Virus record (IMG/VR): IMGVR_UViG_3300025083_000021
Location: 1 to 61,873 of that record
Strand: one strand, 5' to 3'
Origin: a virus
Taxonomy: Duplodnaviria; Caudoviricetes
Length of the DNA: 61,873 bases
Below, piece by piece: positions 8,304 through 56,757 of the stretch. The translations under genes were made by a program, and so were the position numbers. The notes below the pieces were generated by a model. The model saw nothing but the letters and a program-made list of their open reading frames with translations, ran no database searches and was not told the origin of the DNA. Position 1 is the first letter of the stretch. Every line of letters starts with the position of its first letter.

Positions 8304-8312
8304 ATAAAACAA

Positions 8313-9809: not shown

Positions 9810-9881
9810 AAAAATAAATATATATATAGTTACTGACTCAAATTAATTCAGTATATTTACACCAAATAAGTTTAAAAAATT

Positions 9882-15431: not shown

Positions 15432-15437
15432 AAAAAT

Positions 15438-29200: not shown

Positions 29201-32200
29201 TGTATCATCACGTTGCATGAATAAATAGTTTACTCTAAAGTTTTCAAAACCTTTTAATATACTTTGAAGTAATAATGGATTTTTAATTTTTTCTGGTAAT
29301 GGATTATCAGACTCTATAACTTCAATGCCATTATCACCAATAGTATCTAATAGCATTCTATTTACAACAGCTCCTGTATTTGGATTATCCTGACCAAAGT
29401 AATACATGTTCCTTAATATCTCTTTTGAATCACTTAAGTTCTTTACAGCTTTTAACATTCCGTTATAAGCATCCATAAATTCAACAGGAACAATCAATGG
29501 TCTACCTTCGCTTAGTTCTTTGTTACCAAAGTAATCTACATCCTCTAATGTAGTAGTTGCTATATAAGCTCTTATACCTTCAGCAAGACTAGCAAATCCA
29601 CCAATCATTGATGCATCTTTATTAAACTGCTCAACAGTTCTTAATCCAGCTTCACTTTCAAAAAATTCATTATCAAATTCTTGATCTGCGCTTTGTTTAG
29701 TTATTATACTAAGTAATGAATTTACATCTTTTTTAATCTCGGATCTGTATAGTTCAAATGATTTACTAACATTTTCAAGTTGTTCTTTTTGAATATCAGA
29801 TTTATCATCATTAATCTCATTATCTAAACTATAAAGCCACTCAAACTCATCAAGAATATTATTTAAAATTTCCTCTGGAGTAATGTCTTCAACTTCTTCA
29901 ACTTCTTTAAACTTTGATTCAAGTTCTCTTAATTTTTTTGCTTGTGTTTGTGATGAAACATCTGTTAAAAATGTAGCTGCTATTGATCTAATCATCGGCT
30001 CTGCAATAGCACTATCCAAATATAAATATCCTATATTACGGTCTCCATCTTTGTTTGTTTCACTAACAAAATCATATGGAATTAATGCATTAGCTTCAAC
30101 AGATACACCCTCAATTAGATTTGTAGTAAAGTTATTATTTTTTACAGAAGCTGTTCTAAATTTACCAGAATCTATATTTTCAAAAAGAGTTAATAGTTCA
30201 TTCTTAGTATATGAATTAAATAATGCTTTTATCCATTCTAATATTCTATTGAATAATGATTTAATACTAGAATCTGTTTTAGTAGATCTTGGATTTTGTT
30301 TAAATAATTCAAACTCATCAGCCATGTATTCTTCAAGATATTCTTTTTCTAATCTTGAATCACTCATATCAGAATATGTATCTGCAGAGTTTTTAAATCT
30401 TTCTAGTTCTTTTCTATAGCTCTTACCTTCTTTTCTTAACTTAGCTCTAACTTCTCTTCTAGCAATAGATAAATATTTTGCTTGTTGTTCGTCTGTTAAA
30501 AGTAATCTATATACAGCATGGAATCCTTCATGATATTTAAATGGATTTGTAGCTCCTGTATATATAGTACCGTTGATAGTTAGACCACCACCTAAATTAT
30601 ATAATCCTAATGCAAAAGCACCAACACGAACACCGCCAGCTTTCATGTTATTACCTAATGTATTTATATCATCAATAGTAATAAAATCAGGTAAATTTGA
30701 TTTAGCCCAAGATTTAAATTCTTCAATATCAGCATTAGCTTGTTCAGTTGTATTTGCAGGTAATATTTTATTTGCAGCATTTAATTCATCTTCTGCTTTT
30801 CTTATTTTTTCTTTTAACTTAATTACCCGTTCATCTGTCCTCATAGCTTTAGCTATAGCAGGACCGGTTAAATCTTTAGTAACTTCAGCTTTAAGTACAT
30901 TAAGTTGTTCTTTTAAGTTTTCTAATCTTTGATCAGGTGTAAATTCTTCAGCAACTTCAGGTGCAGCTTCAACAACTCTTTCTACTTGTTGTGGTTCAGG
31001 TTTATCAATAGCTGCTTGAGCAGATTCAACTGGAACTTTTACACTTTCGCTATTAGTAGATATTGAAGCATCTATAATAGCCTGTTGTCTTGCAGAATCA
31101 GCGTTTATAAATAATCTTGGTCTAGCAATAACATCATACTGAACATTAGTTGTTGTTTTATCAAGAATCTCTTGAACACCGGCATCTATTGGAAAAGATT
31201 TTCTAAAGTTATTAAATGATATTTTTTGATCTTCTGTAACTTGATTATTAAACTTTTCTAATAGTATATCCATTTTATCTTTAGCAGATGAGTCTGCCAT
31301 TAAATCAGATATTCCTAAGTATGCAGTTTGTATAGTCTTGTATTTATTTTGACCAACACTTTGTCTTAATTGTAAATTTATTTTACCCCATGGACTAACT
31401 TGTAGTTCATATCTATACCCTTTAAGAGATGATGAAATAAATAATGAATCTTTAATTTCAGAATTAAATTCTTTATTATAAGCAATATTTTTTTCTTTAG
31501 CTTTTTCTAATTGCTTTACTGTTGTATCATCAGTAACTTCAACATCTAAATTTTCTTGTGTTGTGAGCATTGCTCTATCAACTACACCAATAAATAATTC
31601 ATTTAATTCATCACTATTAAACTGTTCAGTTTTTAATGGAACAAGTTTATATGTTCCACTAGGTAATAATACAGCTAATGCATACTTCTCAGTAATATTA
31701 GGGTTAGTAAAATTATTATTCTCATCTATTTCACCAGCTTTTTCTAAACCTTTATTAACTTTATTTATAAGTTCAACTGCTGCAGCATCTTGAAGATTTG
31801 TACGTTCAATTCTTGTTTTATTCTTTCCTTCTCCTTGGATCTGAATTATAACTTTATTACCAAATTCATCTGAAGCATTGTATTTTAACTCATCTGCTTT
31901 TTGCGGATTAGCAGCATCAAAAATTAAACCATCAATTGATTGATCTAAAGTAAAACTTTCTGATAATCCAGATAAAGGAATAAAACCATTATAGTCAGAA
32001 GCTAATGATTCGGTTGATGTGCTAAGTAATTTATTCTTTGCAAAAGATTTAATAATAATATCTAGTTTTTGTTCATCAGAAATATTCTTACCTTCTTGTA
32101 TTTTGCTAAAGTCAATTACATTTTTAGCTTGATCAATAGTAAAGTTTATAGGATCTGATACACCTTCAAACTCATAATTATCATTTTTAAAATAGGCAAA

Positions 32201-35200: not shown

Positions 35201-36595
35201 TCCAGTCTTAATTAATTTAGAAGGTAGACCTTTTAGATTTTGTTTAGTTAATCTATTAAATGATTTTTGAAATCCACCTAAAGAATTACCTAATACTAAA
35301 TCATTTGTTAAAAGAAGTATTGGAGTGTTAACAAGAGAAGTATAAAAAGCAGATTCATTAGCTCTGTTTTCTATTTCTGTCATTTGTTCAGCTGTTACAG
35401 GATCACCAAAATTTTCAACAGACTTTAAACCCATCCCTGTTTCAATCATATCATTATATGCAAAACCTCCTTCAAGTTTTGCTTCAGCAAGAGTATAGTT
35501 TAAACGTCTTACATCTCTATAAAAAGCACCTGCAGTTTGAGAAGCCTTGGCAAGATTAGTAAGATTCTGAGCTGTATTAGCTGTAGTTTTCCAATTTCTT
35601 ATAGTAGCAGCTGTTTGTGGAGCAATTATATCAGCTCCAAAATTTAAACCTGATTTTACAGCTCTTCTAAAATCAAATGCTCTATCAACATTATTAAGAC
35701 CTTTTGCAAAATTTCTTGATGCATTCAAAGCTGTACCTATACTAGTAGTTAATGCACCAAGTCTTCCTATATTTTGACCAGTTCTAAAAGCAGCAAATGG
35801 AGATGTAGCACCTCCGGTTCCTGCAACTGCTAATGCTAATGCAGCTTCTTCTACAGCTATAGAACTAATTGTACCAAATGTATATGCACTATTTAATAAA
35901 AGATTATTGGTAAATCCAAAAACACCACCTCTGCTTGAACTACCAATCATCATTGCTTCTTCAAACTCTTCAGCTGTTGTTGTATCCGGTCCTGTAAAAT
36001 ATGAATCAGAATCAAATAAATCACCATAACTTCTGTAAGCACTTTTAAATGCGCTACCTACTAAACTAGTAAATTGTCCGCCCATTCTACTTAAATCATC
36101 CCACATTGTAGAATTAGCATTGTAGTATTCTTCATTATTTGCATATGGAGAAAATCCTAGTTTATTAAATTTTGGATGATTATAATATCTTAAAAATTGA
36201 GTTTGTTTTGCCGATGCATATTGTGGTGCAACAATTCCAGGTAAATCAGATTTATCAATAGGTGCATTAGCTATACTTTGCAAATACTCTTTATCAGAAG
36301 GTGTAATTGGATTTTGTTGTTTAACTGGATCATACGTATTTGATGAGTATGAAGGATTTATATCAGCATAATTACCAACAGTTTGAACATTAGAAGTACT
36401 AATTATATCACCCATTGCTTTTATAGCATCTACTCTTTCCTGATCCAATAAAGCAATTTGATTATCAATTATCTCTGTATCAAATAATGATTCTATTGGT
36501 GTAAACTCATAACCAACATTTGGAATACCATTATCTGTTCTTTCATTGCTTTTAATCTCAGTACTTAAACTACTATTGTCCAATTGATTTATCAT
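23207..36595 (-). CDS. Virion-packaged RNA polymerase polyprotein (crAss-like) with an internal zincin protease domain
   Basis: 4462 aa. RIPSQ...GSDFDIDK catalytic motif (nt 26108-26122); HEGFH...EEYMADEF (nt 30518-30532); Gly/Ala-rich hydrophobic N-terminal segments. Confidence 0.9.
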   Translation of the reverse strand: MINQLDNSSLSTEIKSNERTDNGIPNVGYEFTPIESLFDTEIIDNQIALLDQERVDAIKAMGDIISTSNVQTVGNYADINPSYSSNTYDPVKQQNPITPSDKEYLQSIANAPIDKSDLPGIVAPQYASAKQTQFLRYYNHPKFNKLGFSPYANNEEYYNANSTMWDDLSRMGGQFTSLVGSAFKSAYRSYGDLFDSDSYFTGPDTTTAEEFEEAMMIGSSSRGGVFGFTNNLLLNSAYTFGTISSIAVEEAALALAVAGTGGATSPFAAFRTGQNIGRLGALTTSIGTALNASRNFAKGLNNVDRAFDFRRAVKSGLNFGADIIAPQTAATIRNWKTTANTAQNLTNLAKASQTAGAFYRDVRRLNYTLAEAKLEGGFAYNDMIETGMGLKSVENFGDPVTAEQMTEIENRANESAFYTSLVNTPILLLTNDLVLGNSLGGFQKSFNRLTKQNLKGLPSKLIKTGNKDVPFEYVGDGFKGLMKSIGKAGVKGNVQKIAGNGLRFFAANFGEGIQEVSQEAISAGTKAYYTGLLEDPLAGGIGLFDSAVGSAINEQFSAKGFETFMSGFLMGGIVQGPQKLFFQGLPAVYNRIKDPVAYQEQKEARTKYINDVVDSYNTAWKANEEDPGAFFDRSKFNFLNQKQISKNLESANFDADKFEFENEQDRSKFTALYHIYSTGGQDLFREQLEDYLKLSDQDLTDAFSTNKKDKKAGDIRQKLTSMIGEIDTMEERYEKAYDLIPPRFDPSAFKKGSREYQEESFKKLADDHTRFLYMFTQDSFDKALERSTRIFERLETEPLFKNMAASDITVLMSPESINKEIALLTTEAELLKESDLKEDKDTLKFKTEKIKKLSKFKDIVTDPKNLTKKGSFARKNANKIKSAFSEYVKFLAASEDSFVNDAVIEDALRDIIDYNSLKGSAKVYSESLESFLIPEKFDRVFKSSYDTFKNTFKNARNIFKKQIEEYVGIQERNILLNQLDKLDIIPDPDQVESFLLTGDSSQLRNFYNDSGEVTAINNPEKLKDINEKIGIYNATRPDKVEEEIQEEEVELENKDLQDISEGVGVQVSKTITPLLSNSLKLAYEEYSSRAASLNQKPLKYNEWLNSEAGKNHKEAFFTIKQLWVANDLLINADNSLTEEQIKADAGLVDWLRSEEGRNDPGVLEVLNSVNLTIDELIGQKELLPEEGSTVRGDTNKRVVRKGPNVSIVEIKTLDSDGNEVLSYKIKDNFGKDISPEILTSLNIAEDALFTTSEQALNAFTKIEAAVPDTTKYVFDNTVLKVGNFVYDRNGNEFIVLTSPKDIEAKGNILEIIPSDKNSDPNRLDFIKELKPGEFENFYTLQKLEIVDLPDNVSKLDIRDIIQPYPHVNRETGETNAKARERYEFIISNLTEEEKDQLVIVYRKDPEGGTAKGKLTIGDQPSNPLVENIQAKSIIGLAFGNSNTLSRINGKLIDNNLEPSDSPEGIFAYFKNDNYEFEGVSDPINFTIDQAKNVIDFSKIQEGKNISDEQKLDIIIKSFAKNKLLSTSTESLASDYNGFIPLSGLSESFTLDQSIDGLIFDAANPQKADELKYNASDEFGNKVIIQIQGEGKNKTRIERTNLQDAAAVELINKVNKGLEKAGEIDENNNFTNPNITEKYALAVLLPSGTYKLVPLKTEQFNSDELNELFIGVVDRAMLTTQENLDVEVTDDTTVKQLEKAKEKNIAYNKEFNSEIKDSLFISSSLKGYRYELQVSPWGKINLQLRQSVGQNKYKTIQTAYLGISDLMADSSAKDKMDILLEKFNNQVTEDQKISFNNFRKSFPIDAGVQEILDKTTTNVQYDVIARPRLFINADSARQQAIIDASISTNSESVKVPVESAQAAIDKPEPQQVERVVEAAPEVAEEFTPDQRLENLKEQLNVLKAEVTKDLTGPAIAKAMRTDERVIKLKEKIRKAEDELNAANKILPANTTEQANADIEEFKSWAKSNLPDFITIDDINTLGNNMKAGGVRVGAFALGLYNLGGGLTINGTIYTGATNPFKYHEGFHAVYRLLLTDEQQAKYLSIARREVRAKLRKEGKSYRKELERFKNSADTYSDMSDSRLEKEYLEEYMADEFELFKQNPRSTKTDSSIKSLFNRILEWIKALFNSYTKNELLTLFENIDSGKFRTASVKNNNFTTNLIEGVSVEANALIPYDFVSETNKDGDRNIGYLYLDSAIAEPMIRSIAATFLTDVSSQTQAKKLRELESKFKEVEEVEDITPEEILNNILDEFEWLYSLDNEINDDKSDIQKEQLENVSKSFELYRSEIKKDVNSLLSIITKQSADQEFDNEFFESEAGLRTVEQFNKDASMIGGFASLAEGIRAYIATTTLEDVDYFGNKELSEGRPLIVPVEFMDAYNGMLKAVKNLSDSKEILRNMYYFGQDNPNTGAVVNRMLLDTIGDNGIEVIESDNPLPEKIKNPLLLQSILKGFENFRVNYLFMQRDDTGGSLIYSAANRDDVNSQLSRWSQAWVQASKKIKSDKTFKDGAIEAINKFRVYLEGTQLIDDLQLDRISKETSQDLFNYTGIRLSKKYIAFSIAYNRESRTPKQETNYNANQYVLPIDSADIEQLQRSIESNGDIFDPGIEGMSSRLNKMSENNAEFDETVGAPVFKNPNGDLVYAHQLPTFHLKQVEALNNTEELNDLRDGYLENNYLLNDPAFIKLSDKSKLRVTRIAGSLVGKLNETEEEINARLTGISDRSAYGDFTPRELVLSLLNFYTSNYNTKSGKVETVEYEDNLTDQTMTAALAPVLIRVMEASNTGDLLSLPVIKTVELVKGKTKLTEKALNIYLEQIDNEFKRIQRESNSETKSEERLGYNDTDTGRAFKFYNTGLLLDQNIKEGLEEKAKTNFDISLKEALSSLNKTEGQFKKDLEKKLNDEFEKFDQLLVELGAKDLTSNAINKGLSSAPELNLINDKEYNLKQIFFNDWINTTAINEVLLGDQAVSLKDAVDKTKRGKGQNGAFYSSESNFTAPEYGINHPNKEISYVALEEPIGVSSIGGKSIDRADGQLYMTTKAFRYTRFGIGKLTAAQAELLDRVERGEYIPSYSIFEPGGYASNKEMLNSKKMVYFDGKTYLKMSAFVLTPELTSNPDGTAKPSREALHNLRIKLEAIEKETNTIAMASPLSASKMMKQKVNSLTTLDNTEEFENGYSTLETKYFGLQVLNPSNKLETTDPTQIKALVTSEQDDSVEVEGLNMTVGKIREEYNKATNRRLVLKYKNNRNLIFTFDKAMKEVAEFKITGKITPNLSIFLDYATESLKASKSSSNLLEFFSKQNGEQKYNLNNPITVNKFEELFLSFFSKGVLSEKIPGETLSLVSDFGMKVYRRVYEVDADGNPVRSEVIREKQWEKLEDKPEVFTLSNLTNDQIPAEGIVVLDRLRTGLMEYTNPKDPKTATGQRYSEGLVPAHHASVRNLIENTAANIPEVISKMFAVRIPSQDNHSTMNVKLVDFLPTVNGSSAMFPQELVEIAGSDFDIDKVFTQIKEFYVEDNKFYEYGATEGREYKDYIKYVNEKVNENTPYAKGYRLYETQGLNIEDSYTDAEMLALNDLGFTDKSIKALTALGLPVSKKQYEDYKSKYGEPYEAAYNNEILDYKYALMGNRGVTEAKEGTPISYTPAGLEILTDKETQTGILEVLEELLPGLKEKNREDNVDVDNILGKIKAWMANKGAAIGAIVLPNTYLSLLTEYKSKLKGPAPVFNDRAYNDFGVLNEILSDGTKGDRKQDIISSLITAMTDNAKERLAAKLGLNRHSLSIVANATALGIPLKTSLLLVNNPLITSIYDQAFNKKEKTDPGVKNILKQQIDNLTEVRKIKPASISDDILINYYNEEFPVEKTEEVITEEAPVEEVVKEDKPDGRAEDIKLGILLEFQKLLDIKDFTSKMSAVTTLSNGLGKNIADINKRVNDISDLFAKGALIDLNKVFRGSTWQSGYLKIFEQFYNDIAPAAFVSGTENFRSILNDLYKSIKTNTLDFTEEVESKISRDLLSYLTIKAYQKNKLDTNSQSVATLNNSYIYPTVEGGQYKTITDTINTLREQEDLKDNFFVQNFAISNPADDQSNTTGLELLEANTFRNLNQAQMIDLQTSFARLYGSVKYKQDAIDIVNYMMVKDGLQIGYASLIQAISPFMMEQYLNHVDTASNALRSNNNELITSTFGLNFEDLKSEFIEGYLLSNRSNTLLNNYNFTTTLTGDLIKPEDVNIVDDTLTAKSEDVNPLFVRVTDTFEGRDFTKVTYKTYRLTGADKDVATYTEVETTGSNQQNPIGFMFGDRPTYNQVREYVKSREKKEDTVEEEQQLDRIDQVKQRAAQAPGANIEVTSDGIVKINDKNIADITPTEKNLKVEKVEEYTDIDPDLIDELDNINEDAQQLTSDLFNELQKFNEEINDNYTIIENFWDSNIQFNKEIKNSLRENNNILSLEDLIKEYEDGIYKDQEEFVEQIKKCNL

Positions 36596-36631: not shown

Positions 36632-39600
36632 TTATTTACTACCGTTCATCTTAACGTCTCTTGCTTTTTTCTGATCATTCATGTTTTTATTTACTTCAAA
36701 TGCAGTAAATATTGTTTCATTCATAATTTTATCAAATTGCAAACCTTTATCTGACTGACCACGTAAATCTATAATTCTAGACATTTCTTCCGTAGGTGTA
36801 TATTGCCCGCCATCCTGATACATATTAAATTTATAAGTAACATAATAATAATCATCAGCTGGTTTGGTTATTGAATAATCACCTGTAGGCATACTATCAA
36901 TACCCGGATATTTTTTATCTACAAAGTTATTTGTACTAAGTTCTACTTCACTCATTAATGGCGAATAATATTCTTGTGATCTTGCTTTAGGATTAACATC
37001 TTCTTGTTGATCAAAAATTATAGTAATACCATCCTGAAGAGCTTCTATCTGATCACTTGTAAATACACCTGTTTCAAAACTTTCTCCACCTTTTTGAAAA
37101 GAATTTAACCATTGTGCATTTGGTTTTATTGTAATACTAGCTTTTGATTTTGTAAGATCATCAGTTGAACCAAATACAGGACTATATTCTAATTGAAATT
37201 GTGGTACATTCTTAATACTGGTTTTAGTTGCTTTATCTGTTGTCAAATAAAAATTAACATTATCAGCAAGAACATCAAATAATTTATTAGCTAAATCACT
37301 TTGCTTTAAATAATCTTCTTTACTTTCAACTTGATCTCCTACTACAATTCCATATTTAGAACCTCTTGATTCAAGACTATTCTTTTGCATTAAAAGCCTA
37401 ATAAAGTCTTCTTTGGCATCATCAGACATTGAAGCAGGATTTACATCTGTTGCATATATTGGATATGGTTCTAAATCATCATCTTGTCCAGATCTTCCCC
37501 TTCTAGCATCTAGTAGTGAAGGAAGACCAGCATAATTTTTACTATTTTTTAATTTATTATTTAATATTTTATATGCTCTCCTAGCATCATTTTCAATAGT
37601 AACTTTATCTAAAGTAGTAGAAGGTCTAGCACCTGATCCTAAGTCTCTTATATCAGTACTTTTATTACCTTCATTATCTACATATACTTGTAAAGGTGCT
37701 GCACCGCCAAGAATCTTAGAACCAGTTCTCATTACCCCAGAAGTTTCTCGAATTATATAATCAGAACTTGATGTACCTTTATCTATACCGTATAAATCTA
37801 CATTTGTTAACTTACCTTTTTCTGCTAATTGTAAAGCTTTAGCAATATATTCTTCTTCTGATACTTTACCATTTTTATCTATAATATCTGGAAAACCAGA
37901 CTCTAATAATAAACGTGAATTATCTTTACCTTTACCGGCTAAAGTTTCTTTTTTAACATTTTGATATAATTTTAAAACTTCATCATTAGCAGAGGTAAAA
38001 TTTTTATATAAAGCATCTTCTTGATTAGATATGCTATTCATACCATGAAGTTTATTATAAAAATTTGTATACTTTGAGTCTGCAATTAATGAAGGATGTT
38101 GTTTACTTGCCATACTTGCACCTTCTTGTTGATCTGTAAAGCTGGTAAAGTTATCTATTTCTTTTTCTATAGCATCAATGTTTATATAGTTACCAAATTC
38201 ATCTTTTGCTTCTAATGCTTTTCTTATTTTTTGTAGTGATCCGCTTACAGTTTCTCCATTATCTAATGTAATCGTATAGGAGCCGGTACCTCCATCTCCT
38301 TTTGGATTAAACATAAGCTTACCATCTATTATGGTTTCTATCTTTTGCTGAAGAAATTTATTAGAATCTTCACTATATATTTGTGCATTTTCTAATTGTT
38401 TATCGCGTATTATTTTACCTTCATCATCTACAGCAGCTAATATTTGTGATGGACCTCCTGCTTTAGCTTTTCTTTGTCCTAACAAATCAACAAGCATTTT
38501 TTGCCTAGGATCTAATATTTCACCTTTTTCCATAGCTAATTTTCTTTTATTAGCTAAATCTAAGTCTGATCTATATTTTATTAATTCTTTTGCACGTCGA
38601 TGCCTAACTTTATCTCTTTTAAGTTCATTAACTTTATAATCTAAATTATAATCACGCATACTAAAATCACGTGCAGCTTTAGTTAAATCACTACCAATAC
38701 TATTCATCAAAATTAATTGATAAGCTTTTTGTAATGTACCATTATAATCTTTAACAGGAGTTTTTGAAACATCTTTAATATTCTGCATAGATGCTAATGC
38801 TGCTTTTGTAGCCTCATATGAATTATACTGTTCTCTCATTATTTTTTCATCTTGAGAACCAGGTATAATACCATTATTTTTTGCATATGTCTCCCAATTA
38901 GTTACACCATTAGCTTCTCTCTGTAAAGCTTTGGTTGTCTTTTGCATTAAGAAATCATTTTGTTTTCCAATAAGATCAATAGTTTGTTGGGCCCATGCTT
39001 GTTGTCCTTCTTGAATAGATGAAAACTCTCCTGTTCTAACTCCTTCATCAGCAAAGTCTCTTCCTTTAACAAATGCTTGAGTATAATAAGCTCTCTGAAC
39101 TGCAGGATCATCAATAAATCTATTCTTAATCATTTCTAAAGCTGGTCCTGTAACTAACTCACCATTGGTTTGTGTTATAATAAAATCAGCATCTGTATTA
39201 AAACGTCTATTTTTACCTTCGCCTACAAATAAATTCATAGGTGCGGTTATCTTTAATGGAGGATCTAGTTCAGATAAATATTTTTCTGCCATCTGATATA
39301 GATTAACATCATCAACATACCTTGGCATTCCCATAGCAAGAGCAGCATCACCAGATGCATTTTGAAAATCTTGCATCTTATATTGTAAATCTTTTATACC
39401 AGTTTCCCACCATTTACCTCTTTGTTCTTCATCAGGAGAATCAAGCAATCTATTTGCATATGCCATTTCATTCTGATAATTAGTGGTATATAACATGTCC
39501 TTTACAAGAAGATCATCTTCATAAAAAGGTGCAAATACAGCTTTTGCAGAATCAACATTTTGTTGTATAGATAAATCTAAACCTGATATTTTTTCAATAG

Positions 39601-39820
39601 AAGGTTTAATCTGTTCTATATATTGTTCTCTCTTATCTAAATTATCTTCTCTAGATAAAGGCGCATAAACAATTTTACTATATAAGTCGTTTGTTGCTTG
39701 CCAGTTTCTATTGTATTTATCTTGTCTAGATTGTAATACACTAGATAAAAATTTATAATCTGGAGTAAACGGTTTAATGTCTGGTAAATATGTTTCTACT
39801 CCTGGTACGTATGTTGACAT
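36632..39820 (-). CDS. Virion cargo/ejection protein
   Basis: 1062 aa, largely helical, immediately upstream of the vRNAP as in crAss-like gene order. Confidence 0.65.
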   Translation of the reverse strand: MSTYVPGVETYLPDIKPFTPDYKFLSSVLQSRQDKYNRNWQATNDLYSKIVYAPLSREDNLDKREQYIEQIKPSIEKISGLDLSIQQNVDSAKAVFAPFYEDDLLVKDMLYTTNYQNEMAYANRLLDSPDEEQRGKWWETGIKDLQYKMQDFQNASGDAALAMGMPRYVDDVNLYQMAEKYLSELDPPLKITAPMNLFVGEGKNRRFNTDADFIITQTNGELVTGPALEMIKNRFIDDPAVQRAYYTQAFVKGRDFADEGVRTGEFSSIQEGQQAWAQQTIDLIGKQNDFLMQKTTKALQREANGVTNWETYAKNNGIIPGSQDEKIMREQYNSYEATKAALASMQNIKDVSKTPVKDYNGTLQKAYQLILMNSIGSDLTKAARDFSMRDYNLDYKVNELKRDKVRHRRAKELIKYRSDLDLANKRKLAMEKGEILDPRQKMLVDLLGQRKAKAGGPSQILAAVDDEGKIIRDKQLENAQIYSEDSNKFLQQKIETIIDGKLMFNPKGDGGTGSYTITLDNGETVSGSLQKIRKALEAKDEFGNYINIDAIEKEIDNFTSFTDQQEGASMASKQHPSLIADSKYTNFYNKLHGMNSISNQEDALYKNFTSANDEVLKLYQNVKKETLAGKGKDNSRLLLESGFPDIIDKNGKVSEEEYIAKALQLAEKGKLTNVDLYGIDKGTSSSDYIIRETSGVMRTGSKILGGAAPLQVYVDNEGNKSTDIRDLGSGARPSTTLDKVTIENDARRAYKILNNKLKNSKNYAGLPSLLDARRGRSGQDDDLEPYPIYATDVNPASMSDDAKEDFIRLLMQKNSLESRGSKYGIVVGDQVESKEDYLKQSDLANKLFDVLADNVNFYLTTDKATKTSIKNVPQFQLEYSPVFGSTDDLTKSKASITIKPNAQWLNSFQKGGESFETGVFTSDQIEALQDGITIIFDQQEDVNPKARSQEYYSPLMSEVELSTNNFVDKKYPGIDSMPTGDYSITKPADDYYYVTYKFNMYQDGGQYTPTEEMSRIIDLRGQSDKGLQFDKIMNETIFTAFEVNKNMNDQKKARDVKMNGSK

Positions 39821-39879
39821 AATATAAAATTAATCAAATTTTTTAAGTTTAACAAAATAAATCATAACACTTTTAAAGT

Positions 39880-42432
39880 TTACAATTCTACTCCCATCTT
39901 ACCTGAGTAAAATGGAACTGCCATTTTTTTGGTTTCTAATCCATTCTTTGCACGTCTGTTTAATAATCCAGATGCCAATGCTTGAGCTAATTCTTGCTGT
40001 CCCATTGTTGAAAAGTTATTCGCTGCTGAGTTACCTTGACCTGTAAATTTTAAATAATCTTGAAACGTTGGCGCTTTAGTTTGTCCTGTTGATCTTTGAA
40101 ATTTAGAATAAGCGTCAAAAAATTGTTGTTGTCTTTTATTCTGATCAACTACTGGAGCAGGTTGAAATGCTTTAGGACTTGTAAAATCTATAATCCCACC
40201 TGTAAGAGGGTTAATATTAAATTGATCAAACAAAGGATTTATGTTTGCTGTATATGCTCTATTAGTAATAGCTGCATTCTGCAACTCTGCATTTTTAGCA
40301 ATCTTCCAATTCTTAAAGTTATCAGCAGCTTGTAGCGCTTTATTTGTATCATCATAAACACCTATAGTGTTTCTTTGATTTATTAAATCTACTTGCATAT
40401 CCATTGCAGCTTGTCTACCTGCAACTGAATTCATAGTTCTAACATTATTCTGATTTACTGTATTAATAGTTCTAGCAATATCTTTTAATGTATTCCCCTG
40501 TATGTTTGAATTAGCAATAGCTGCTGCTCCACCTGCTGTTCCTAATGCATTAGCTATTGTATTTTGAGCACCTAATGCTGCATTAACACCATTCCTAAAA
40601 TCATCTAATACATAATCTATTTTAACAGGAGCCATATCAGGTCTCCACGGTAAATATAAATTATCATCAGTTAAGTTAAGTGCTTGAAGATTATTTACAT
40701 CTTGAATCCACCAATCTGTTTGTGGATTAGGAGCTTTATTTACATTTGGTATTTTATAATCTACCTTTTCTTTAATAGGAGGATCTGAATCTAATATAAC
40801 TGTTTCACTATCTGGTTCAGTTACATCTAAGAATTGATTTAAAGTATTATTACCATAAAAGCCATCTGCTCTTGAAATAGTATTATTTTCAAACCAGTTT
40901 GTTTTTTGAGAAGGTCCTTCTGCTCTATAAGATAAAAATGGATTTTTACTTTCTTTATCTTCTATTGCAAGTGTTTGGAAAAATATTTGATTTAATTTAG
41001 TATCTTCCTCATTAATATTATATCCAGAATACTTATTAAAAAGATCTTGTGAATTTTTATTTTTAGCACCTTTATCAAGTTCTTTTGCTAATCTTTCATC
41101 TTTACTAGCAGCATCTGAAATAATATAATTATTTTTTTGATAGTCCAAAAACTTTCTAACCATATCTTCTTTAGATGGAACATTTTCAATACCTCTTGAT
41201 TTTGCTGATGCAACAAAACCTGTATATGCTCTATCAACAGTATTCATCCATTGCGGATCATTGGATGTAAATAACCTTTCTAATTTATTATATTTATCTA
41301 CACCTTTTAGATCTTTATTAGCCGCTTGTTTTTCAACTAATTTAATAATAGTTTGACCTTGTGCATTTTTAGTTTTAACAACATCATATCGTCCTGTATT
41401 AAGTTTGTTTTGAAACTCTTGACGTTTAGGATGTGTAACTGGTAATGGGTTAGCAGGTATATCTGCGGTCTCTTCTGTTGTCTCTTCTTCAGTACCTACA
41501 ACTTCAGCACCTTCTGTATCTTCAGGAAAAAGCATAGAACCATATTGAAAAGCATCTTCTTCAGATAATTGTTCTCCTCCTTCTTGAGCCATTGGTATTT
41601 CTGTACCGTATCTAGCCATGCCTTCTTCCATAACAACCGCTTCATCATCATTATCAACTTGACTCATCAGTTGCTGAAGCATCATTACCTGTGCTTGTCT
41701 TTCAGGTGGCAATGCAGCCATTGCATCCATTTGTGCTTGTTGCTGAGTTATCTTTTCTACATTAGCTGTAAACTCAATAGGGTTTTCACCTAAAGATACT
41801 ATATAAGGATGAGAAGCTAATGGAACACCATCCTGAAATTTTTTCTTTTCTTCTTGTTTAAAAGCAAGTTTAGATAAACCCATACTGTATTTATTCTTCA
41901 TAAGGTCTACACTTCTTTTTGTTATATCATCTGAATGCTCATCATTTATAGCATCATATAACTTATTTAGTGGATAGTTTTTTGAAATCTTAGCTGGAGT
42001 TTTTTTCTTCTTACTGCTTATTCCAAACTCTGCCATTTCTTTTTTGTCAAACTTCATTTTATCTGTATCAGAAAAAACAAATGATCCTTCAGGTAAAAAC
42101 ATTGGAACACCACCTTTAGAATGTCTTGGTCCCTTTATATCATATAAACCAAACTCACCATCATTATTAAGATCTGTTAATACAGTTTCTCCACCCTCTG
42201 CTTCTATATTGGCTTCATCTCTAGGTACACCAGATAAACTATATCTCACATCTGCTTGACCTTCTTCATTAAAAGCTACACCAGTATAATAATCTTGTGG
42301 TACAGTTATTAAACCGTAATCATCTTGATCACCTGTAACCATCCCGCCATTTTTCATAGTATTTTTTTGAACTACAGTATTACCTTTTAATTCAAAACCT
42401 TCTGGTAATTTATTTATTTTTATTTTAGCCAT
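39880..42432 (-). CDS. Putative internal virion protein with xxxGG motifs
   Basis: 850 aa with an NIEAEGGETV...GPRHSKGGVP domain, MKNGG, MARYG and MAQEGG motifs, and an Ala/Asn/Gln-rich helical C-terminus. Confidence 0.65.
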   Translation of the reverse strand: MAKIKINKLPEGFELKGNTVVQKNTMKNGGMVTGDQDDYGLITVPQDYYTGVAFNEEGQADVRYSLSGVPRDEANIEAEGGETVLTDLNNDGEFGLYDIKGPRHSKGGVPMFLPEGSFVFSDTDKMKFDKKEMAEFGISSKKKKTPAKISKNYPLNKLYDAINDEHSDDITKRSVDLMKNKYSMGLSKLAFKQEEKKKFQDGVPLASHPYIVSLGENPIEFTANVEKITQQQAQMDAMAALPPERQAQVMMLQQLMSQVDNDDEAVVMEEGMARYGTEIPMAQEGGEQLSEEDAFQYGSMLFPEDTEGAEVVGTEEETTEETADIPANPLPVTHPKRQEFQNKLNTGRYDVVKTKNAQGQTIIKLVEKQAANKDLKGVDKYNKLERLFTSNDPQWMNTVDRAYTGFVASAKSRGIENVPSKEDMVRKFLDYQKNNYIISDAASKDERLAKELDKGAKNKNSQDLFNKYSGYNINEEDTKLNQIFFQTLAIEDKESKNPFLSYRAEGPSQKTNWFENNTISRADGFYGNNTLNQFLDVTEPDSETVILDSDPPIKEKVDYKIPNVNKAPNPQTDWWIQDVNNLQALNLTDDNLYLPWRPDMAPVKIDYVLDDFRNGVNAALGAQNTIANALGTAGGAAAIANSNIQGNTLKDIARTINTVNQNNVRTMNSVAGRQAAMDMQVDLINQRNTIGVYDDTNKALQAADNFKNWKIAKNAELQNAAITNRAYTANINPLFDQFNINPLTGGIIDFTSPKAFQPAPVVDQNKRQQQFFDAYSKFQRSTGQTKAPTFQDYLKFTGQGNSAANNFSTMGQQELAQALASGLLNRRAKNGLETKKMAVPFYSGKMGVEL

Positions 42433-42434
42433 AA

Positions 42435-44396
42435 TTATAAAAAACTTATATCTGCACCTGCTGCAATTAATTTAGCAAGCATATCTGAATCTACTTCAAT
42501 TTCTCCACCTTCTTTATAAAACTCTTCTTGTTCTACTTCTCTTAACTTTTGCATAAACGCATTTATATCCATTCCTGTTTGTGCTTTAGGTAATTCATGA
42601 ACATATCCCATCTTATCCATTCTAACATGATCTTCATATTTATCAGCTTTATAACCTTTACCTGTTTCAGGATCATACATTATATGAGGTTTAAACTCAC
42701 CACCCTTTTTCATATTAGCTTTAATATTCTCTTGAACTTCTGGAGGTAAAGCTCTAAAACCTGGATTATCTATACCACCACCATATTTGGTTACACCTGA
42801 TGTATTTCCCATATAAAGTCCTGTAACATAATCTGCTTCAGGTGCATCATAGTATGGGCCTCTAAATCCTCTTTTATTAAATGGATCTGCTGCAGTTGCA
42901 TAACTTTGATCAGCTATCAAATTAAAATCTCTTTGTTTTTCTGCTTCTCTATATCTTATATCTCTATTAAGTTTATTAAACTGATTAAAAACATTAAATG
43001 CAAGATCACCCATTTCTCCGTAACCTTCAACAAATCTACTATCCATAATTCTATTAGCAAGACCTTGAAGTTTATTTGTTCTTTCTACTTCAGGAGGTAC
43101 AAAACCCGTTGGTCCAGAAACATTTGGATTTCCAAATCCAGTATTAATAAATGAATTTGTATTAAGATTTTGAAAAAACTGTGAACCCATACCAGAACCA
43201 GTACCCATTTGAGCTTTAGGTATATCACCACCATAAGCCATTTCTAAAAAGTTTTTAGTTGCATTTGGAATATTCACACCTAAATTAAATCCTGAAGTCA
43301 TTGACTCTTCTATTTTCTTTTGTTTTTCAAGTTCTTCTTCATAATCTGGAGCTTTGGCAATCGGTCTACCATATTCATCATATCCAAATGTAGTTCCTGT
43401 TTGAATACCTTCATCTGTAAAAGATTTCAATGCTTCACCTTTTGATGCATCAAATAATCTTTGTGGTGTTATTTGATATTCATTAGGATCATTAGGATCT
43501 AGTTTAATATTATAATCATAATAATTTGGTATTCTTTCTTTTTGATTAGCTCTTTTTGATTTTATATCTCTAAAGAATCCATCTTTTAAACCATCCTCAT
43601 CTTTATCTTTACCACCAAATAAACTTGAATAAGCATCAGCTGCTACATAAGCTGCTTCTGCTAAACTAAAATTGTCATTTGATCCTCTTAATAAAATTGG
43701 ATCAATATATCTTGGAGAAGATATCCAATTCATATTTCTACGTATTCTAGGATCATTTGTACCACCTCTCTGATACATTTCCATACCATCTTCAGCTTTA
43801 CCCATTGCTTCTTTAATAGCTCTATCTCTATTTTCTAAGTATGCCGCCTCACCTTTTTCACCACCGTATTCAGCTTTATTCCAGCCAGCTGCATTCTTTG
43901 CAAAGTTAGCCATTTTTACTATAGATGGTGGGTATTCATCTGTATTAGCCATAACTTTATTGTATGCTTGTTTAACAGTCATACCACGTTGTTTAGCCCA
44001 TTTAGTAAACTTACCTTTATTTTCTGGTTTTATTTCTATACCGGATTTTGCTAAAAGAGTTTCTTCTGCTAAATCTACGTCACCTTCTTCTTCTTGCATG
44101 CTTTGCATTCTTGCAAGTTGTTCTGGGTTTTGTGTAACCTCTTCTCCTGTAGGTTCTTCTTGTTCAATGTAATCTTCTGCTCTTTGTAATAATGGAACTA
44201 TTTCTTCCATTGGCATTTCCATTAAAGTTAATGCTTGTGTAATAGTTGCTGCATCAACTTTATCTTTTCTAAGTTTGATTACAACTTCAATAGGTTGCAT
44301 TCCCTCTTCCATTGAAGAGTTTATCATTGATGCTAATTGTTGAAGTTCTGGTTCTATTTGTTGACCGCCTTCTTGTTTCTTTGATAAATAGTTCAC
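42435..44396 (-). CDS. Putative internal virion polyprotein of motif-delimited mini-modules
   Basis: 653 aa with a GTG start and about 11 xxxG(G) motifs. Confidence 0.65.
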   Translation of the reverse strand: MNYLSKKQEGGQQIEPELQQLASMINSSMEEGMQPIEVVIKLRKDKVDAATITQALTLMEMPMEEIVPLLQRAEDYIEQEEPTGEEVTQNPEQLARMQSMQEEEGDVDLAEETLLAKSGIEIKPENKGKFTKWAKQRGMTVKQAYNKVMANTDEYPPSIVKMANFAKNAAGWNKAEYGGEKGEAAYLENRDRAIKEAMGKAEDGMEMYQRGGTNDPRIRRNMNWISSPRYIDPILLRGSNDNFSLAEAAYVAADAYSSLFGGKDKDEDGLKDGFFRDIKSKRANQKERIPNYYDYNIKLDPNDPNEYQITPQRLFDASKGEALKSFTDEGIQTGTTFGYDEYGRPIAKAPDYEEELEKQKKIEESMTSGFNLGVNIPNATKNFLEMAYGGDIPKAQMGTGSGMGSQFFQNLNTNSFINTGFGNPNVSGPTGFVPPEVERTNKLQGLANRIMDSRFVEGYGEMGDLAFNVFNQFNKLNRDIRYREAEKQRDFNLIADQSYATAADPFNKRGFRGPYYDAPEADYVTGLYMGNTSGVTKYGGGIDNPGFRALPPEVQENIKANMKKGGEFKPHIMYDPETGKGYKADKYEDHVRMDKMGYVHELPKAQTGMDINAFMQKLREVEQEEFYKEGGEIEVDSDMLAKLIAAGADISFL

Positions 44397-44455
44397 TTTG
44401 ATAATAGTTAGATTACACTATTAATATACAAATAAATAAAGTAAATTACTAATTT

Positions 44456-47044
44456 TTAACCGTTTGGATTCTTCAAAAGATAAGTCATTATATAGTTAGG
44501 AGCAGACATGCCAAACTGTTTTGCATTTTTATAATGTATTCTGTTAAGTTTATCGTAAACTTTTTGAGCTTCTATTTGATCAGCTTTATTATCAAAATCT
44601 GAATTTATATAACTTTTATATAATTCTAATTCTTCTACTTCCCCACCCTGTCTTTTAATATTAGGTATCTCCATTAAAGTTTTTTGAAAATCTTTAACCC
44701 TAACAGGAGTTTGTTTATACCAATTGCTATCAGCAGCTTCTTTAGCTGCTTCATTATACTTTCCTTCTTTAAGTAATTTCCAAGTATTTTTATGTTCTTT
44801 ATACCAATTTTTTCCTAACTGAAAATTTACAGATGCTAATGCATTAATTAATCTTTCATCAGTATTACCTATTTCTTCAGCTTGTTCTATTGCTGCATTA
44901 TAAAACTTTTTTGTATCTTGTTCAAACCATCTATTTACTTGTTCTTGAGGAATAGATGTTCCTTTAGGATATTTTCTTTTTTCAGCTTCTGTAAGTAAAT
45001 GACCAATACCTCCTGTTAATTTACCCTCACTATCAATATAAGATCTCTTACCTTTCTTCTCTGTAAATCCTTCTCTTTGTTTTATAAGCTCTGTAGCAGG
45101 TTTAAACATTTCATAACTAAATGTATCATAAAAAGGTTTGCCTGGTGCAAAAAGATTTTCCATAGCAAGCTTTCCTGCAAAAGTTTTATACTCTTTTGGT
45201 TCAGAAATAGGAACATTAAGAGTTTGATTTATTTGTAATGTTCTACCTCTTATACCTGGATTGGCTTTTATAAACTGATCTTTACTTACACCTAAACTGC
45301 TAGCCAATTTATTAGCAATACCATCAAATGTATCTCCTGATTTAACTGTATATTCACCACCCGTTTGAAGTTTAGCTATTAACCCTTTTGTTTGAGATTC
45401 TAAATCTTTTGGTATATTAGCATCTATCCATCCTTGAGGTAAATTTTTTCTTCTTGCTATATCAATAAATTCTTCTGCAGTATCAAATCCATAATTATTA
45501 CCATGTATGTTTACATATCTAGAAAATTCTTTAGGTTCTTCAATATCTGAATATTTATAAGCTTCTTTTGGTACTGGTCCTTGACTTTTAGGATATACTT
45601 TTACTGGGTCATATACTGGAAATACTGAAGCATCATTATCGGCATTACTTCTATAAAATTTCCATTTATCTGGTTTTATATTTCTATGTAATAATACTGG
45701 AGGAGCATCTTCACGATAAATAGTATTTACACCATGTGTGCCAAAAAGATCTCCTACTTGTATTAAATCTTTATTAATAACTTTATTTCTATCATCTAAT
45801 GATCCCATTTTAATAGGACCATCATTATCTGGAAAAGTATTATACAAATTTCTAGCGCGTCTGTTTGCATAATCTGGATTAAAATTTTTAAAAACTTCTT
45901 CTATATTTTCATTGTCAATAAATCCTGACTGGACAAGTCTATCGGAATAATACGGTTTATAGTCAAATTCACCATCCCCAACATTTTGCTCATAAAACTT
46001 TGCCTTTAAAATAGCATTATTATATAAAGCTAAACTGTCCTGAGTTGTAGCTCCACCAAATTGTGCTGTAGGTAAAGCTTGACCTTGTTCATCCATAGCA
46101 ATAATATTCATTAGATTTATAAGATCTTTTTCTGATTTTGTATTACGTAGTAAATCTTGAAAGTGTTTGTTTAATTCTATTCTTGTGTTTTCTTTTGCTT
46201 TCTGTAAGTGTTTTTCTGTAAAGTCTTCAGTTCTTGCATCATATATACCTTCCTCTTGTAATAAATATCTAAGAGGTTGTAACCTATTAATATATTCAGT
46301 GGGTTGTGTATAGTAATATTCTTCTTTAGGTATACCTAAATCATTGTCTTTTAATGTAGACATTAATAAATCTTTTGTGGGTTGTGGTATTCTCTTTCCA
46401 CCTTCATCAGCTGCATGACCCATTTCATGTAAAGGTATTGTATTATAACTCCATGGTCCTTGTCTACCTTTTGAATATTCAGGTCTTAACATAATCATAC
46501 CCGGATACTCATCAGCATCATATACACCTTGTACATCACCTGGTGTAGGAGATATATCACTTGATTCAGGAAGAAATCTTACAGGTGTATTTCTTAAGTT
46601 CATCAAACGTGCTCTTCTTTCATTTGCTACTTTATTAGCATCATACGCACCTGGCATAAAGCCGGTCATTTCTTTACCAAGTCTCTCTAAATACTTATCA
46701 GATCTTATGTAAGAATCAAACCAGTTTCTTTGCTTTTGTCCCTCTTCATTCATTTGACCTCCACGCTGAGCCATTGGTACTTCAAATACCATGTCACCAG
46801 GAAACTTATAATCTTTACCTGGTTTCATTAGTTTTGTATTACCTAAGTTATCTGTTCCTATAACAGGGAAGTCTACACCCTTCATTGTAATATTACCAGA
46901 AGGTATAACATTAAAAGGGTTATTTACATCAGGACTATCAGCTTTATAACCATCTACGGAAAACATTCCAGTTACATAAGTAAACTGTTCGTTTGGCCCA
47001 CCTGGTAACCCTCTACTTTCTTTATGCTCAAATTTTCCTTTCAT
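44456..47044 (-). CDS. Multidomain virion protein: zincin metallopeptidase, LysM and GH24/T4-type lysozyme
   Basis: Zincin PLHEMGH...PTEY; LysM YTVKSGDTFDGIA...ANP...INQTLNVP; lysozyme REG...YIDSEGKLTGGIGHLL...EAADSNWYKQTPVR. Confidence 0.8.
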   Translation of the reverse strand: MKGKFEHKESRGLPGGPNEQFTYVTGMFSVDGYKADSPDVNNPFNVIPSGNITMKGVDFPVIGTDNLGNTKLMKPGKDYKFPGDMVFEVPMAQRGGQMNEEGQKQRNWFDSYIRSDKYLERLGKEMTGFMPGAYDANKVANERRARLMNLRNTPVRFLPESSDISPTPGDVQGVYDADEYPGMIMLRPEYSKGRQGPWSYNTIPLHEMGHAADEGGKRIPQPTKDLLMSTLKDNDLGIPKEEYYYTQPTEYINRLQPLRYLLQEEGIYDARTEDFTEKHLQKAKENTRIELNKHFQDLLRNTKSEKDLINLMNIIAMDEQGQALPTAQFGGATTQDSLALYNNAILKAKFYEQNVGDGEFDYKPYYSDRLVQSGFIDNENIEEVFKNFNPDYANRRARNLYNTFPDNDGPIKMGSLDDRNKVINKDLIQVGDLFGTHGVNTIYREDAPPVLLHRNIKPDKWKFYRSNADNDASVFPVYDPVKVYPKSQGPVPKEAYKYSDIEEPKEFSRYVNIHGNNYGFDTAEEFIDIARRKNLPQGWIDANIPKDLESQTKGLIAKLQTGGEYTVKSGDTFDGIANKLASSLGVSKDQFIKANPGIRGRTLQINQTLNVPISEPKEYKTFAGKLAMENLFAPGKPFYDTFSYEMFKPATELIKQREGFTEKKGKRSYIDSEGKLTGGIGHLLTEAEKRKYPKGTSIPQEQVNRWFEQDTKKFYNAAIEQAEEIGNTDERLINALASVNFQLGKNWYKEHKNTWKLLKEGKYNEAAKEAADSNWYKQTPVRVKDFQKTLMEIPNIKRQGGEVEELELYKSYINSDFDNKADQIEAQKVYDKLNRIHYKNAKQFGMSAPNYIMTYLLKNPNG

Positions 47045-55545: not shown

Positions 55546-56757
55546 TTATATTGCCTGATAGGTTAATTCACATATATTACCTAATAATGCATCTTGAAGT
55601 TCTAACTTACCCGATCTTCTGTTACCTACATATTTATTACTATAATGGTAATAATCTGTTTTACCTAAACTTGGTAAAGTCTTATGAACAAAACCTGTTG
55701 TCTCAGCAGTAGTCATATATTCAACTTTTCTTTCTGTATGAAAATGTCCTGTAAATAAAGTTCTATTAATAGTTGCACCCCATTGTTTAGGATATTCTGT
55801 TGCATATACCAATGGTGTATTTTTACTTGGTTTATCTCCATGTTCAAATGCATTAAAATTATTACCCCATACATGAACTTTTCTTTCTTCATATTTAATA
55901 TCCCAAGTAATTTCATCACACTCTATAGACTTTGATAATGCATGAGCTAAATGAAAAGAAGATAATCTATCATGATTACCAGGTATATATACTACAACTA
56001 ATTCTTTACAAAAACTTTTAATATAATTAATACCCCAATGTAATGCATCAAATGCTTGAACATATGCTTCGGTTGATGTCATACAATTATCTAAAGGAGT
56101 ACCGCTTGTTGTTGTACCATTAAATGTATCCATATTAATTAAATCTCCACCAACAACAAAATACATCTTTTCTATATAATGAGACGGTACAGCTCTATTT
56201 AATAAATTAATTAAAGTATCTTCAAAATCTTTATCTATAGTTTCATTACCTTCTTTACCAAAATGTATATCTTGTAAAGACATAATACCACACACTGTGT
56301 GTGCATTTTTTCCTTTGTCTAATTTAACTTTTGGTATCTTATGAGTTTTTGGTTTCCAGTTTTCTAATAATTTTTCAAAATTGCTTTCTGTAGCATCTTT
56401 TACTTTTGAAACCAATGCTGAAACTCTCCAATGATCTCCCATTTGTTTATTCCAATATTGGGAAAGCTTCCACTCTTTTGTATCAATACTTAAAAGTTTT
56501 ATAATTTCTTCTGCTGACTTTGGTTCTGTAGATAATGTAGCAGCTATAGTTTTTTCACCTTTCTCTAAATTTACTGCTTCAGTAATACCTGAGTCAGCAT
56601 CCATTTTTCCAAAAAACTTTCTTTTTTGTTTTTTGTTTTTTCTAATTTCATTTCTCAACTTAACATACTCTGATTCAGATATACCAAGTTTATCTGCACA
56701 ATATGCAACAGACTTTTTCCACTTAAATGTTTTGATAATTTCTTCCTTAATATTCAT
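55546..56757 (-). CDS. Calcineurin-like metallophosphoesterase with a putative N-terminal HTH
   Basis: DIHFG, GGDLIN, PGNHD, EHGD and TGHFH; N-terminal SVAYCADKLGIS. Confidence 0.85.
   Translation of the reverse strand: MNIKEEIIKTFKWKKSVAYCADKLGISESEYVKLRNEIRKNKKQKRKFFGKMDADSGITEAVNLEKGEKTIAATLSTEPKSAEEIIKLLSIDTKEWKLSQYWNKQMGDHWRVSALVSKVKDATESNFEKLLENWKPKTHKIPKVKLDKGKNAHTVCGIMSLQDIHFGKEGNETIDKDFEDTLINLLNRAVPSHYIEKMYFVVGGDLINMDTFNGTTTSGTPLDNCMTSTEAYVQAFDALHWGINYIKSFCKELVVVYIPGNHDRLSSFHLAHALSKSIECDEITWDIKYEERKVHVWGNNFNAFEHGDKPSKNTPLVYATEYPKQWGATINRTLFTGHFHTERKVEYMTTAETTGFVHKTLPSLGKTDYYHYSNKYVGNRRSGKLELQDALLGNICELTYQAI

Follow-up and report, generated by a model that had tools for sequence, protein, structure and literature searches.

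Crassvirus cargo proteins, polyvalent zincin/lysozyme phage proteins and internal virion lysozymes have already been described in print. In ΦcrAss001, cargo protein 1 (gp45; PDB 7qog) is the product of the gene that comes first after that for the muzzle; the virion contains it, part in the tail barrel and part on the portal, and its proposed direction of ejection is from the N to the C terminus (Bayfield et al., 2023, PMC10172136). Polyvalent proteins are large multidomain proteins delivered with the DNA, in which a zincin-like metallopeptidase occurs with lysozyme/transglycosylase, ADP-ribosyltransferase (ART) and further effector domains in many different arrangements (Iyer, Burroughs, Anand, de Souza, Aravind, 2017, PMC5512222). 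Here, we report that an 862-amino-acid (aa) protein encoded by a single open reading frame (ORF; 44456-47044, minus strand) of the IMG/VR record IMGVR_UViG_3300025083_000021 is built of exchangeable modules that join at a short glycine-glycine seam motif. The 61,873 nucleotides analyzed (hereafter, the window) are part of a marine crAss-like phage, and the 862-aa protein is the product of the first of its four cargo (ejection) genes. With a zincin, a LysM and a lysozyme domain in one ORF, it combines at least two unrelated effector domains, as polyvalent proteins do, and its homologues share with them the Pfam family ART-PolyVal. Unlike polyvalent proteins as described in the passages of Iyer et al. 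drawn on here, which name no seam or cleavage motif and leave crass phages unmentioned, its cassettes are framed by a GG seam motif, a constant N-terminal domain and a constant C-terminal tail. No description of a GG (double-glycine) seam in the cargo or ejection proteins of phages turned up in the full-text literature (supplements and subscription papers lie outside this body of text).

The modules follow one another as an N-terminal beta-rich domain, a zincin-like metallopeptidase, a cassette of unassigned fold, a LysM domain with a T4-type lysozyme, and a helical C-terminal tail, with a Gly-Gly motif at each of the four borders (Table 1). A previous reading of this DNA from its letters alone (the sequence-only reading) had located the four motifs, the HEMGH signature of the zincin and the start of the LysM domain, all of them exactly, and its claim that the motifs mark boundaries agrees with Pfam limits, with drops in AlphaFold2 (AF2) confidence and with the ends of homology. 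In the AF2 models, the third motif lies between a helix (546-560) and the first LysM strand (563-566). The fourth (RQGG) carries its Q at position -1, not -2. Three more GG pairs in the protein (residues 15, 215 and 678) lie inside conserved domain cores, and an enrichment of plain GG was ruled out (7 observed vs 5.2 expected). The longer form Q.GG is non-random (3 vs 0.25 expected, P = 0.003, 300 shuffles). The window holds eight Q.GG sites, all in the four cargo ORFs at 36632-47044, and none occurs in the other 31 window ORFs of at least 100 aa, including proteins of 4462, 2086 and 1897 aa. Three of the cargo ORFs together hold five copies of an even longer form (hydrophobic, P, x, A, Q, x, G).

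We then examined the motif across 80 IMG/VR loci collected by alignment of the N-terminal domain, each with 10 kb of flanking sequence per side as far as the contig reached. When all ORFs are counted, the 81,064 aa encoded upstream of the N-domain gene contain a single Q.GG, and the 227,819 aa that begin with this gene contain 302. The enrichment and depletion figures were calculated against shuffle expectations after removal of duplicate ORFs, and they ignore the shared ancestry of the 80 loci. On this basis, upstream ORFs are depleted (Q.GG 1 vs 7.0 expected; [QK].GG 5 vs 20.2) and downstream ORFs enriched (275 vs 72.6 and 526 vs 173.5, respectively), while the ratios for plain GG are 0.73 upstream and 1.23 downstream. 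The enrichment is found in cargo 1 (3.06x) and cargo 2 (4.32x), with none overall in cargo 3 (1.11x) or cargo 4 (0.74x). Counted from the first Gly, the flanks prefer P at -5, A or M at -3 and Q at -2, and E directly follows the GG in 87 of 301 Q.GG sites. GG is close to fixed beside the terminal peptides: it precedes the cargo-1 C-terminal tail in 54/54 ORFs of the loci and in 120/125 proteins (four of the five exceptions read GA), precedes the 22-aa cargo-2 C terminus in 46/50, and follows the cargo-3 N-terminal peptide in 42/42. Near the N terminus of cargo 2 it is present in 30/50. The last motif stands 20-30 or 50-70 aa from the C terminus in 93 of 197 proteins, and the first stands 10-30 aa from the N terminus in 55 of the 197.

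Homologues of the protein are numerous. A word-indexed protein search returned 212 at E <= 1e-3, and an exhaustive search with residues 1-563 returned 3281 at this threshold and 1068 at E <= 1e-10; a whole-protein search of IMG/VR for close relatives gave one partial locus (L001). Across more than 1000 homologue clusters, the N-domain and the C-tail are constant and the middle is exchanged, which strongly supports the cassette-style architecture that the sequence-only reading had proposed. The N-domain is present in 170 of 226 collected proteins, and the C-tail has a blastp match in 58 of the 80 loci. When the protein was compared by BLAST with the 226 proteins, right-hand homology ended at query residues 95-109 in 121 of 201 cases and left-hand homology ended at residues 795-799 in 40 of 131, so most relatives share the N-domain and C-tail only. 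The smallest member (P0218, 198 aa) consists of the N-domain, a zinc ribbon and the C-tail, and nothing else. Other members carry as cassettes two LysM domains and YkuD (P0046), LysM and SLT (P0053 and P0074), LysM, SLT and PG_binding_1 (P0080), ART-PolyVal (P0069) or SET (P0043), and the cassette of unassigned fold recurs in P0009, P0021, P0022, P0024 and P0065, for example. The module that directly follows the N-domain in P0088-P0100 is found in the window in the next gene, after ...LLAKSG; thus, modules move between genes.

The exchanges coincide with the motif. Among unique breakpoints, with the N-domain seam excluded, 7.3% lie within 5 residues of Q.GG vs 2.2% of random positions (3.3x), and 14.5% lie near [QK].G[GIK] vs 5.9%; such local-homology breakpoints are not independent events. 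The ratios for the control dipeptides EE, KK, PG and [DN]G are 0.8-1.4. At the N-domain seam, counted in the 157 of 170 proteins that match the junction pattern, the first Gly is general and the position after it holds G in 81 proteins, I in 32, K in 14 and other residues in the remainder. A loose regular expression for LysM-like starts in the homologues places a GG within 6 residues upstream in 20 of 46. A portable motif thus sets module borders in thousands of cargo proteins and makes it simple to divide giant proteins that otherwise defy annotation into units, which helps to catalogue effectors such as lysozyme, SLT, YkuD, ART, SET and zincins. A zinc-ribbon mini-module (CxxC...CxxC) of about 40 aa was also seen directly after the N-domain, between two seam motifs, in P0024, P0044, P0080, P0084, P0086 and P0218.

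The N-domain has strands at 45-90 with a predicted local distance difference test score (pLDDT) of 72-87 in the AF2 model. Its sole PHROG match is 36695 ("virion structural protein"), and a fold search with VIA-align gave weak matches to small beta proteins (Z <= 4.8). For the metallopeptidase cassette, a separate AF2 model of residues 1-331 was made, since Foldseek with the whole model gave T4-lysozyme entries and lysozyme fusions alone. The mean pLDDT of this model is 79.6, exceeding 90 across most of 205-310, and the top 15 VIA-align rows, which cover model residues ~95-317, are all zinc metallopeptidases (Z of 7.1 for PepO, 6.9 for neprilysin, 6.9 for Zmp1, 6.8 for ECE-1, 6.3 for PPEP-2 and 6.0 for lethal factor). 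H206, E207, H210 and E250 are invariant in 30 aligned sequences, and E250 is the putative third zinc ligand. The cassette matches PHROG 24249, and Pfam has no family over residues 97-331 at E <= 0.1, PolyVal-type metallopeptidase models included. We assign residues 97-320 to the gluzincins with moderate confidence. The cassette at 332-557 gave no Pfam or PHROG match and no usable ESM Atlas feature match, and all of its structure rows have template modelling (TM) scores of 0.34 or less.

The lysozyme assignment is supported by PHROG 7 ("endolysin") and PHROG 2083 ("internal virion lysozyme motif"; E 3.7e-13), by the Foldseek match of the full model to T4 lysozyme (T4L; probability 1.0, TMt ~0.6) and by phmmer of the domain against T4L (1.7e-8). 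E658, D671 and T677 fit the catalytic pattern EG...D.....T(G/I)GIGH; by the phmmer offset, D671 and T677 align with T4L positions 20 and 26, and E658 is the residue that we take, from the T4L motif, to be the catalytic Glu. A podovirus "Internal virion protein" (PDB 28sd/9sfd/9sfn, 898 aa) aligns over its residues 756-877 with residues 664-790 (E 1.2e-12). Such podovirus proteins are ejected and bear a T4-type lysozyme for local digestion of the wall, as we propose for the 862-aa protein; the match covers the lysozyme domain only, without the LysM, zincin and GG-seam architecture. Delivery of a peptidoglycan hydrolase and a protease by the virion, which the sequence-only reading had predicted, is supported by this domain and fold evidence and by gene position. 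The ATG of the ORF overlaps the stop codon of the muzzle gene (TAATG), and the protein is probably translated together with the muzzle protein. The genes for crAss ring protein 1 and ring protein 2 lie upstream beyond the muzzle gene, and same-strand ORFs of 653, 850, 1062, 4462 and 1897 aa follow downstream in this order. The gene thus occupies the place that defines Crassvirales cargo, directly downstream of the muzzle gene and before the genes for the virion RNA polymerase.

The cultured relatives carry related seams. Residues 358-428 of ΦcrAss001 gp45 align with residues 89-179 of the second cargo gene of the window (E 1e-5), and AFGG falls on AEYGG, which identifies a homologous seam. gp45 has four [FY]GG sites (positions 209, 332, 427 and 562) vs 0.89 expected (P = 0.0065), and they flank both of its resolved segments, 214-245 and 425-552 (PMC10172136). 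The second segment starts at A425 and runs unbroken through G427-G428 and G434-G435; this continuity through the homologous GG argues against an obligatory cut right after it. The peptides of gp45 named in the text of the same paper (79-101, 181-190, 275-300 and 307-320) span none of the [FY]GG sites. Unlike the 862-aa protein, gp45 has no zincin (no HExxH). A by-eye comparison of N- and C-terminal peptides places the 850-aa gene product of the window closer to gp45 than the 862-aa protein, and this third cargo gene may be the true counterpart of ΦcrAss001 cargo protein 1 (C1), in which case the 862-aa protein would be an extra, clade-specific cargo protein. As a side observation, AFGGWLNTQGG of gp45 (L086, 16988-19516) resembles GGWLDKFQEGG of marine homologues such as P0010, and the third cargo gene begins with a peptide MAKIKINKLP...GG and has a basic C terminus, both like those of gp45.

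In Cellulophaga phage phi14:2 (Crassvirales), g070 is the first product after the muzzle-position gene and has two HExxH motifs, one of them homologous to that of the 862-aa protein (E 7e-8), while g069 ends in AQGG and a 20-aa tail. In Cellulophaga phage phi4:1, gp041 has two zincins with YAQAGG between them, and gp040 combines an N-domain-like start with five xQxGG sites. Record annotation lists phi4:1 gp040 and gp041 and phi14:2 g070 and g069 as virion proteins by tandem mass spectrometry, and the first three carry modules homologous to those of the 862-aa protein. The module sets of both phages differ from its own, phi14:2 has a looser motif, and phi4:1 belongs to Lightbulbvirus, not to the crassviruses. 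Since phi4:1 (L003, 6749-11655) shares the zincin, the N-domain-like module and the xQxGG seams, the seam system is not confined to Crassvirales. The gp31 protein of Flavobacterium phage Fpv1 (628 aa) contains 9 GGs, whose flanks are looser.

The reading that we favor, at a probability of roughly 0.55, is that the 862-aa protein is a virion-packaged and ejected "polyvalent" cargo protein whose seams are selected joints that need not be cut. Residues 1-90 (the N-terminal beta domain) and 802-862 (the C-terminal helical tail) would direct the protein to where it belongs in the tail or capsid. Once the protein has been ejected, its LysM domain would attach to murein and its lysozyme would cleave the glycan strands, so that the wall is opened for DNA entry; the zincin would act on a target in the host envelope (peptide stems or proteins), most likely not on its own carrier. 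The motif of the seams has a Gly-Gly core, usually with Q or K at -2, often with a hydrophobic residue, P, x and A before it and often with E after it. Short disordered seams of this kind may let the modules fold, unfold and pass the tail channel independently, as "beads on a string" (PMC13434306), and modules are swapped at them between cargo genes and between phages. If the seams stay uncut, the motif is a conserved joint with which multi-domain proteins are threaded through the tail of a phage. That they also serve as protease sites appears to us to fall short of an even chance; if they are cut, proteolytic maturation of cargo would be established in this order and the published ejection model would change.

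Several results weigh against uncut joints in an ejected protein. A hinge would not need a near-invariant GG at terminal junctions, where the rare exceptions are mostly GA, nor position-specific flanks, and it leaves the upstream depletion of [QK].GG unexplained; these features fit a protease site better than a mere hinge. Packaging and ejection are themselves deduced from gene position and homologous modules, and the protein shows no significant similarity to gp45 (best blastp E 4.9) and is not its orthologue. Regarding the zincin, the fold match is middling (Z ~7, all below 8), and a profile of 8 sequences searched against PDB sequences gave chance-level rows alone (E >= 0.088).

The best surviving alternative is a maturation polyprotein, in which the GG seams of cargo 1 and cargo 2 are cut by a protease that the phage encodes and that acts in trans, either in the particle or once the cargo has been ejected. 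This would yield separate effectors and remove the terminal address peptides. We regard this as tenable and rank it slightly behind uncut selected joints. Gly-Gly maturation has parallels in the adenovirus protease, in pS273R of African swine fever virus (ASFV) and in ubiquitin-like and SUMO-like processing, all by cysteine proteases; Q-x-G-G resembles SUMO C termini, and adenovirus, ASFV, T4 and phiKZ provide parallels in head maturation. As in those viruses, a short GG-ending motif lies here at the unit borders of packaged proteins, where cleavage is putative. The near-invariant GG beside the terminal peptides of cargo 1, 2 and 3, with GA tolerated, the preferences for P, A/M and Q before the site and E at +1, the propeptide-like placement near the termini, the depletion in upstream tail proteins, the restriction of enrichment to cargo 1 and 2, and the very small zinc-ribbon modules between motifs all speak for a protease site, and so do the peptides of gp45 named in the text, none of which spans an [FY]GG site.

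The candidate enzyme would be the zincin-like domain of the giant 4462-aa protein, which joins this region and an RNA-polymerase motif DFDID (residue 3492) in one frame and aligns weakly with phi14:2 gp66. Its pattern YHExFH...EEYMADEF is conserved in the window and in 5/5 relatives examined, and Pfam scans of 35 window ORFs (the window being ~54% of the genome) detected no other protease. A preprint on phi14:2 reports a zincin in the RNA-polymerase-associated protein and suggests cleavage of fused RNA polymerase polyproteins, with a role for the zincin (10.1101/2020.03.07.982082). If the seams are cut, sequence comparison makes the zincin of the giant protein a better candidate for processing than that of the 862-aa protein itself. 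In one relative (G003), two ORFs, of 2491 and 1935 aa, share the region matching the giant ORF between them.

Against cleavage in trans stand the second Gly of the N-domain seam, which is kept in barely more than half of the proteins, the unbroken gp45 chain, the lack of motif enrichment overall in cargo 3 and cargo 4, and the absence of Q.GG from the giant proteins for which the literature predicts cleavage; the depletion statistic also ignores shared ancestry. Gel bands of ~150, 270 and >300 kDa from ΦcrAss001 virions would fit uncut large cargo if they hold these proteins (PMC6235969), the virion RNA polymerase (vRNAP) of N4 is packaged unprocessed (PMC5512222), and the beads-on-a-string picture likewise favors intact chains. 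For the "polyprotein" of the sequence-only reading, the cassette architecture bounded by the motif is strongly supported, while proteolytic cutting is putative. In its fullest form, the maturation model is an undescribed virion system of crAss-like and other Bacteroidota phages, in which a zincin packed with the RNA polymerase cuts cargo at x-[QK]-x-G-G and releases the effectors; we consider this rather unlikely. It would mean that address peptides are removed and that a phage-specific cocktail of wall-degrading and host-modifying effectors is released, and the tail-barrel and portal-bound pieces of ΦcrAss001 C1 would be separate fragments and not a single chain that runs through the portal.

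Self-processing, in which the HEMGH zincin cleaves the four GG motifs of its own protein in cis or between molecules, had been put forward by the sequence-only reading. The intact HExxH with its invariant downstream Glu, the zincin fold match and the position of motifs 1 and 2, which directly flank the zincin, are consistent with it, as are relatives with this zincin that often end ...QPGGWLDKY straight after the domain. Iyer et al. (2017, PMC5512222) also predict autoprocessing of polyvalent proteins by such metallopeptidase domains, and yet the N4 vRNAP that carries one is packaged unprocessed according to the same paper. A hidden Markov model found this zincin family within 10 kb in only 12 of the 80 loci. 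In five relatives that are 82-100% complete, a profile of both domains matched through its N-domain part only, and its zincin part matched nowhere. Zincin-positive loci have 1.02 Q.GG sites per 1000 aa vs 1.39 in zincin-negative loci, and in the homologues the domain is one exchangeable cassette among others. It is thus a poor general candidate for the processing enzyme, self-processing is improbable, and the zincin is more likely an effector, one cassette among many. Least probable of all, and by our estimate very improbable, is that the seams are recombination sites only, at which short conserved border DNA promotes cassette shuffling while the peptide has no role: modules are indeed exchanged at the motif between genes and between phages, but a DNA-level repeat or recombination signal was ruled out by the varied codons (GGA GGT, GGT GGA, GGT GGT, GGC GGT and GGC GGG) and the lack of extended nucleotide identity across the 24 motif-like matches listed for the window, it is the amino-acid sequence that is conserved, and the motif is fixed beside constant terminal peptides, where exchange is not needed.

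Table 1. Features of the 862-aa cargo protein and of neighboring genes in the window (residues are those of the protein named)
Feature	Position	Strand	Remarks
Target ORF, cargo (ejection) protein 1	44456..47044	-	directly after muzzle gene
N-terminal beta-rich domain, residues 1-90 (GLPGGPNE ... FEVP)	46775..47044	-	constant, putative "address" module of the family
Seam motif 1, MAQRGG, residues 91-96	46757..46774	-	pLDDT <50 at 92-95; homology stops here
Putative gluzincin-type metallopeptidase cassette, residues 97-320	46085..46756	-	HEMGH 206-210 (46415-46429); E250 within PTEY
Seam motif 2, PTAQFGG, residues 325-331	46052..46072	-	inside pLDDT <50 stretch 318-379
Cassette of unassigned fold, residues 332-557	45374..46051	-	pLDDT 25-66
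Seam motif 3, KLQTGG, residues 558-563	45356..45373	-	one residue ahead of LysM core YTVKSGDT (565)
LysM peptidoglycan-binding domain, residues 565-612	45209..45352	-	Pfam PF01476, E 4.2e-10, 39.9 bits vs cut-off 20.9
T4-type (GH24) lysozyme, residues ~649-795	44660..45100	-	Pfam PF00959 at 666-777, E 3.1e-8
Seam motif 4, IKRQGG, residues 796-801	44642..44659	-	pLDDT <50 at 796-801; 61 residues follow
Helical C-terminal tail, residues 802-862 (...YDKLNR...PNYIMT...)	44459..44641	-	second constant module; helices 801-856 in model
Muzzle protein gene, 2086 aa	47044..53304	-	Pfam crAss_MUZ, E 1.7e-28; directly upstream of target
Cargo gene 2, 653 aa	42435..44396	-	motif-rich; residues 89-179 homologous to ΦcrAss001 gp45 358-428
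Cargo gene 3, 850 aa	39880..42432	-	N-terminal conserved peptide ends GG (residues 29-30); IPMAQEGG at 280-287
Cargo gene 4, 1062 aa	36632..39820	-	two Q.GG close to C terminus
Second zincin-like motif HEGFH, residues 2022-2026 of the 4462-aa giant protein (23207-36595)	30518..30532	-	YHEGFH...EEYMADEF

Other features of the window were noted in passing. The C-terminal 22 aa of cargo gene 2 after the GG (EIEVD..LAKLIAAGADI..L) are kept in 46-50 related loci, and this peptide looks like an amphipathic address or docking helix. The window has a GC content of ~30% and is an estimated 54% of the complete genome. A DNA repair exonuclease-like gene (55546-56757, minus strand; PHROG 704, E 1.9e-44) lies within the block of tail and structural genes. 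A paralogous pair of DUF7936 genes (60281-60619 and 61510-61848, minus strand) stands on either side of a 280-aa ORF (60647-61489, minus strand) with 15% glycine, yet one GG vs 6.3 expected. On the plus strand, auxiliary genes at 7638-10715 and 14451-17063 encode a PhoH-like ATPase, a 4HBT thioesterase, a spore-photoproduct-lyase-like protein, a DUF932 protein, and the small and large subunits of ribonucleotide reductase.

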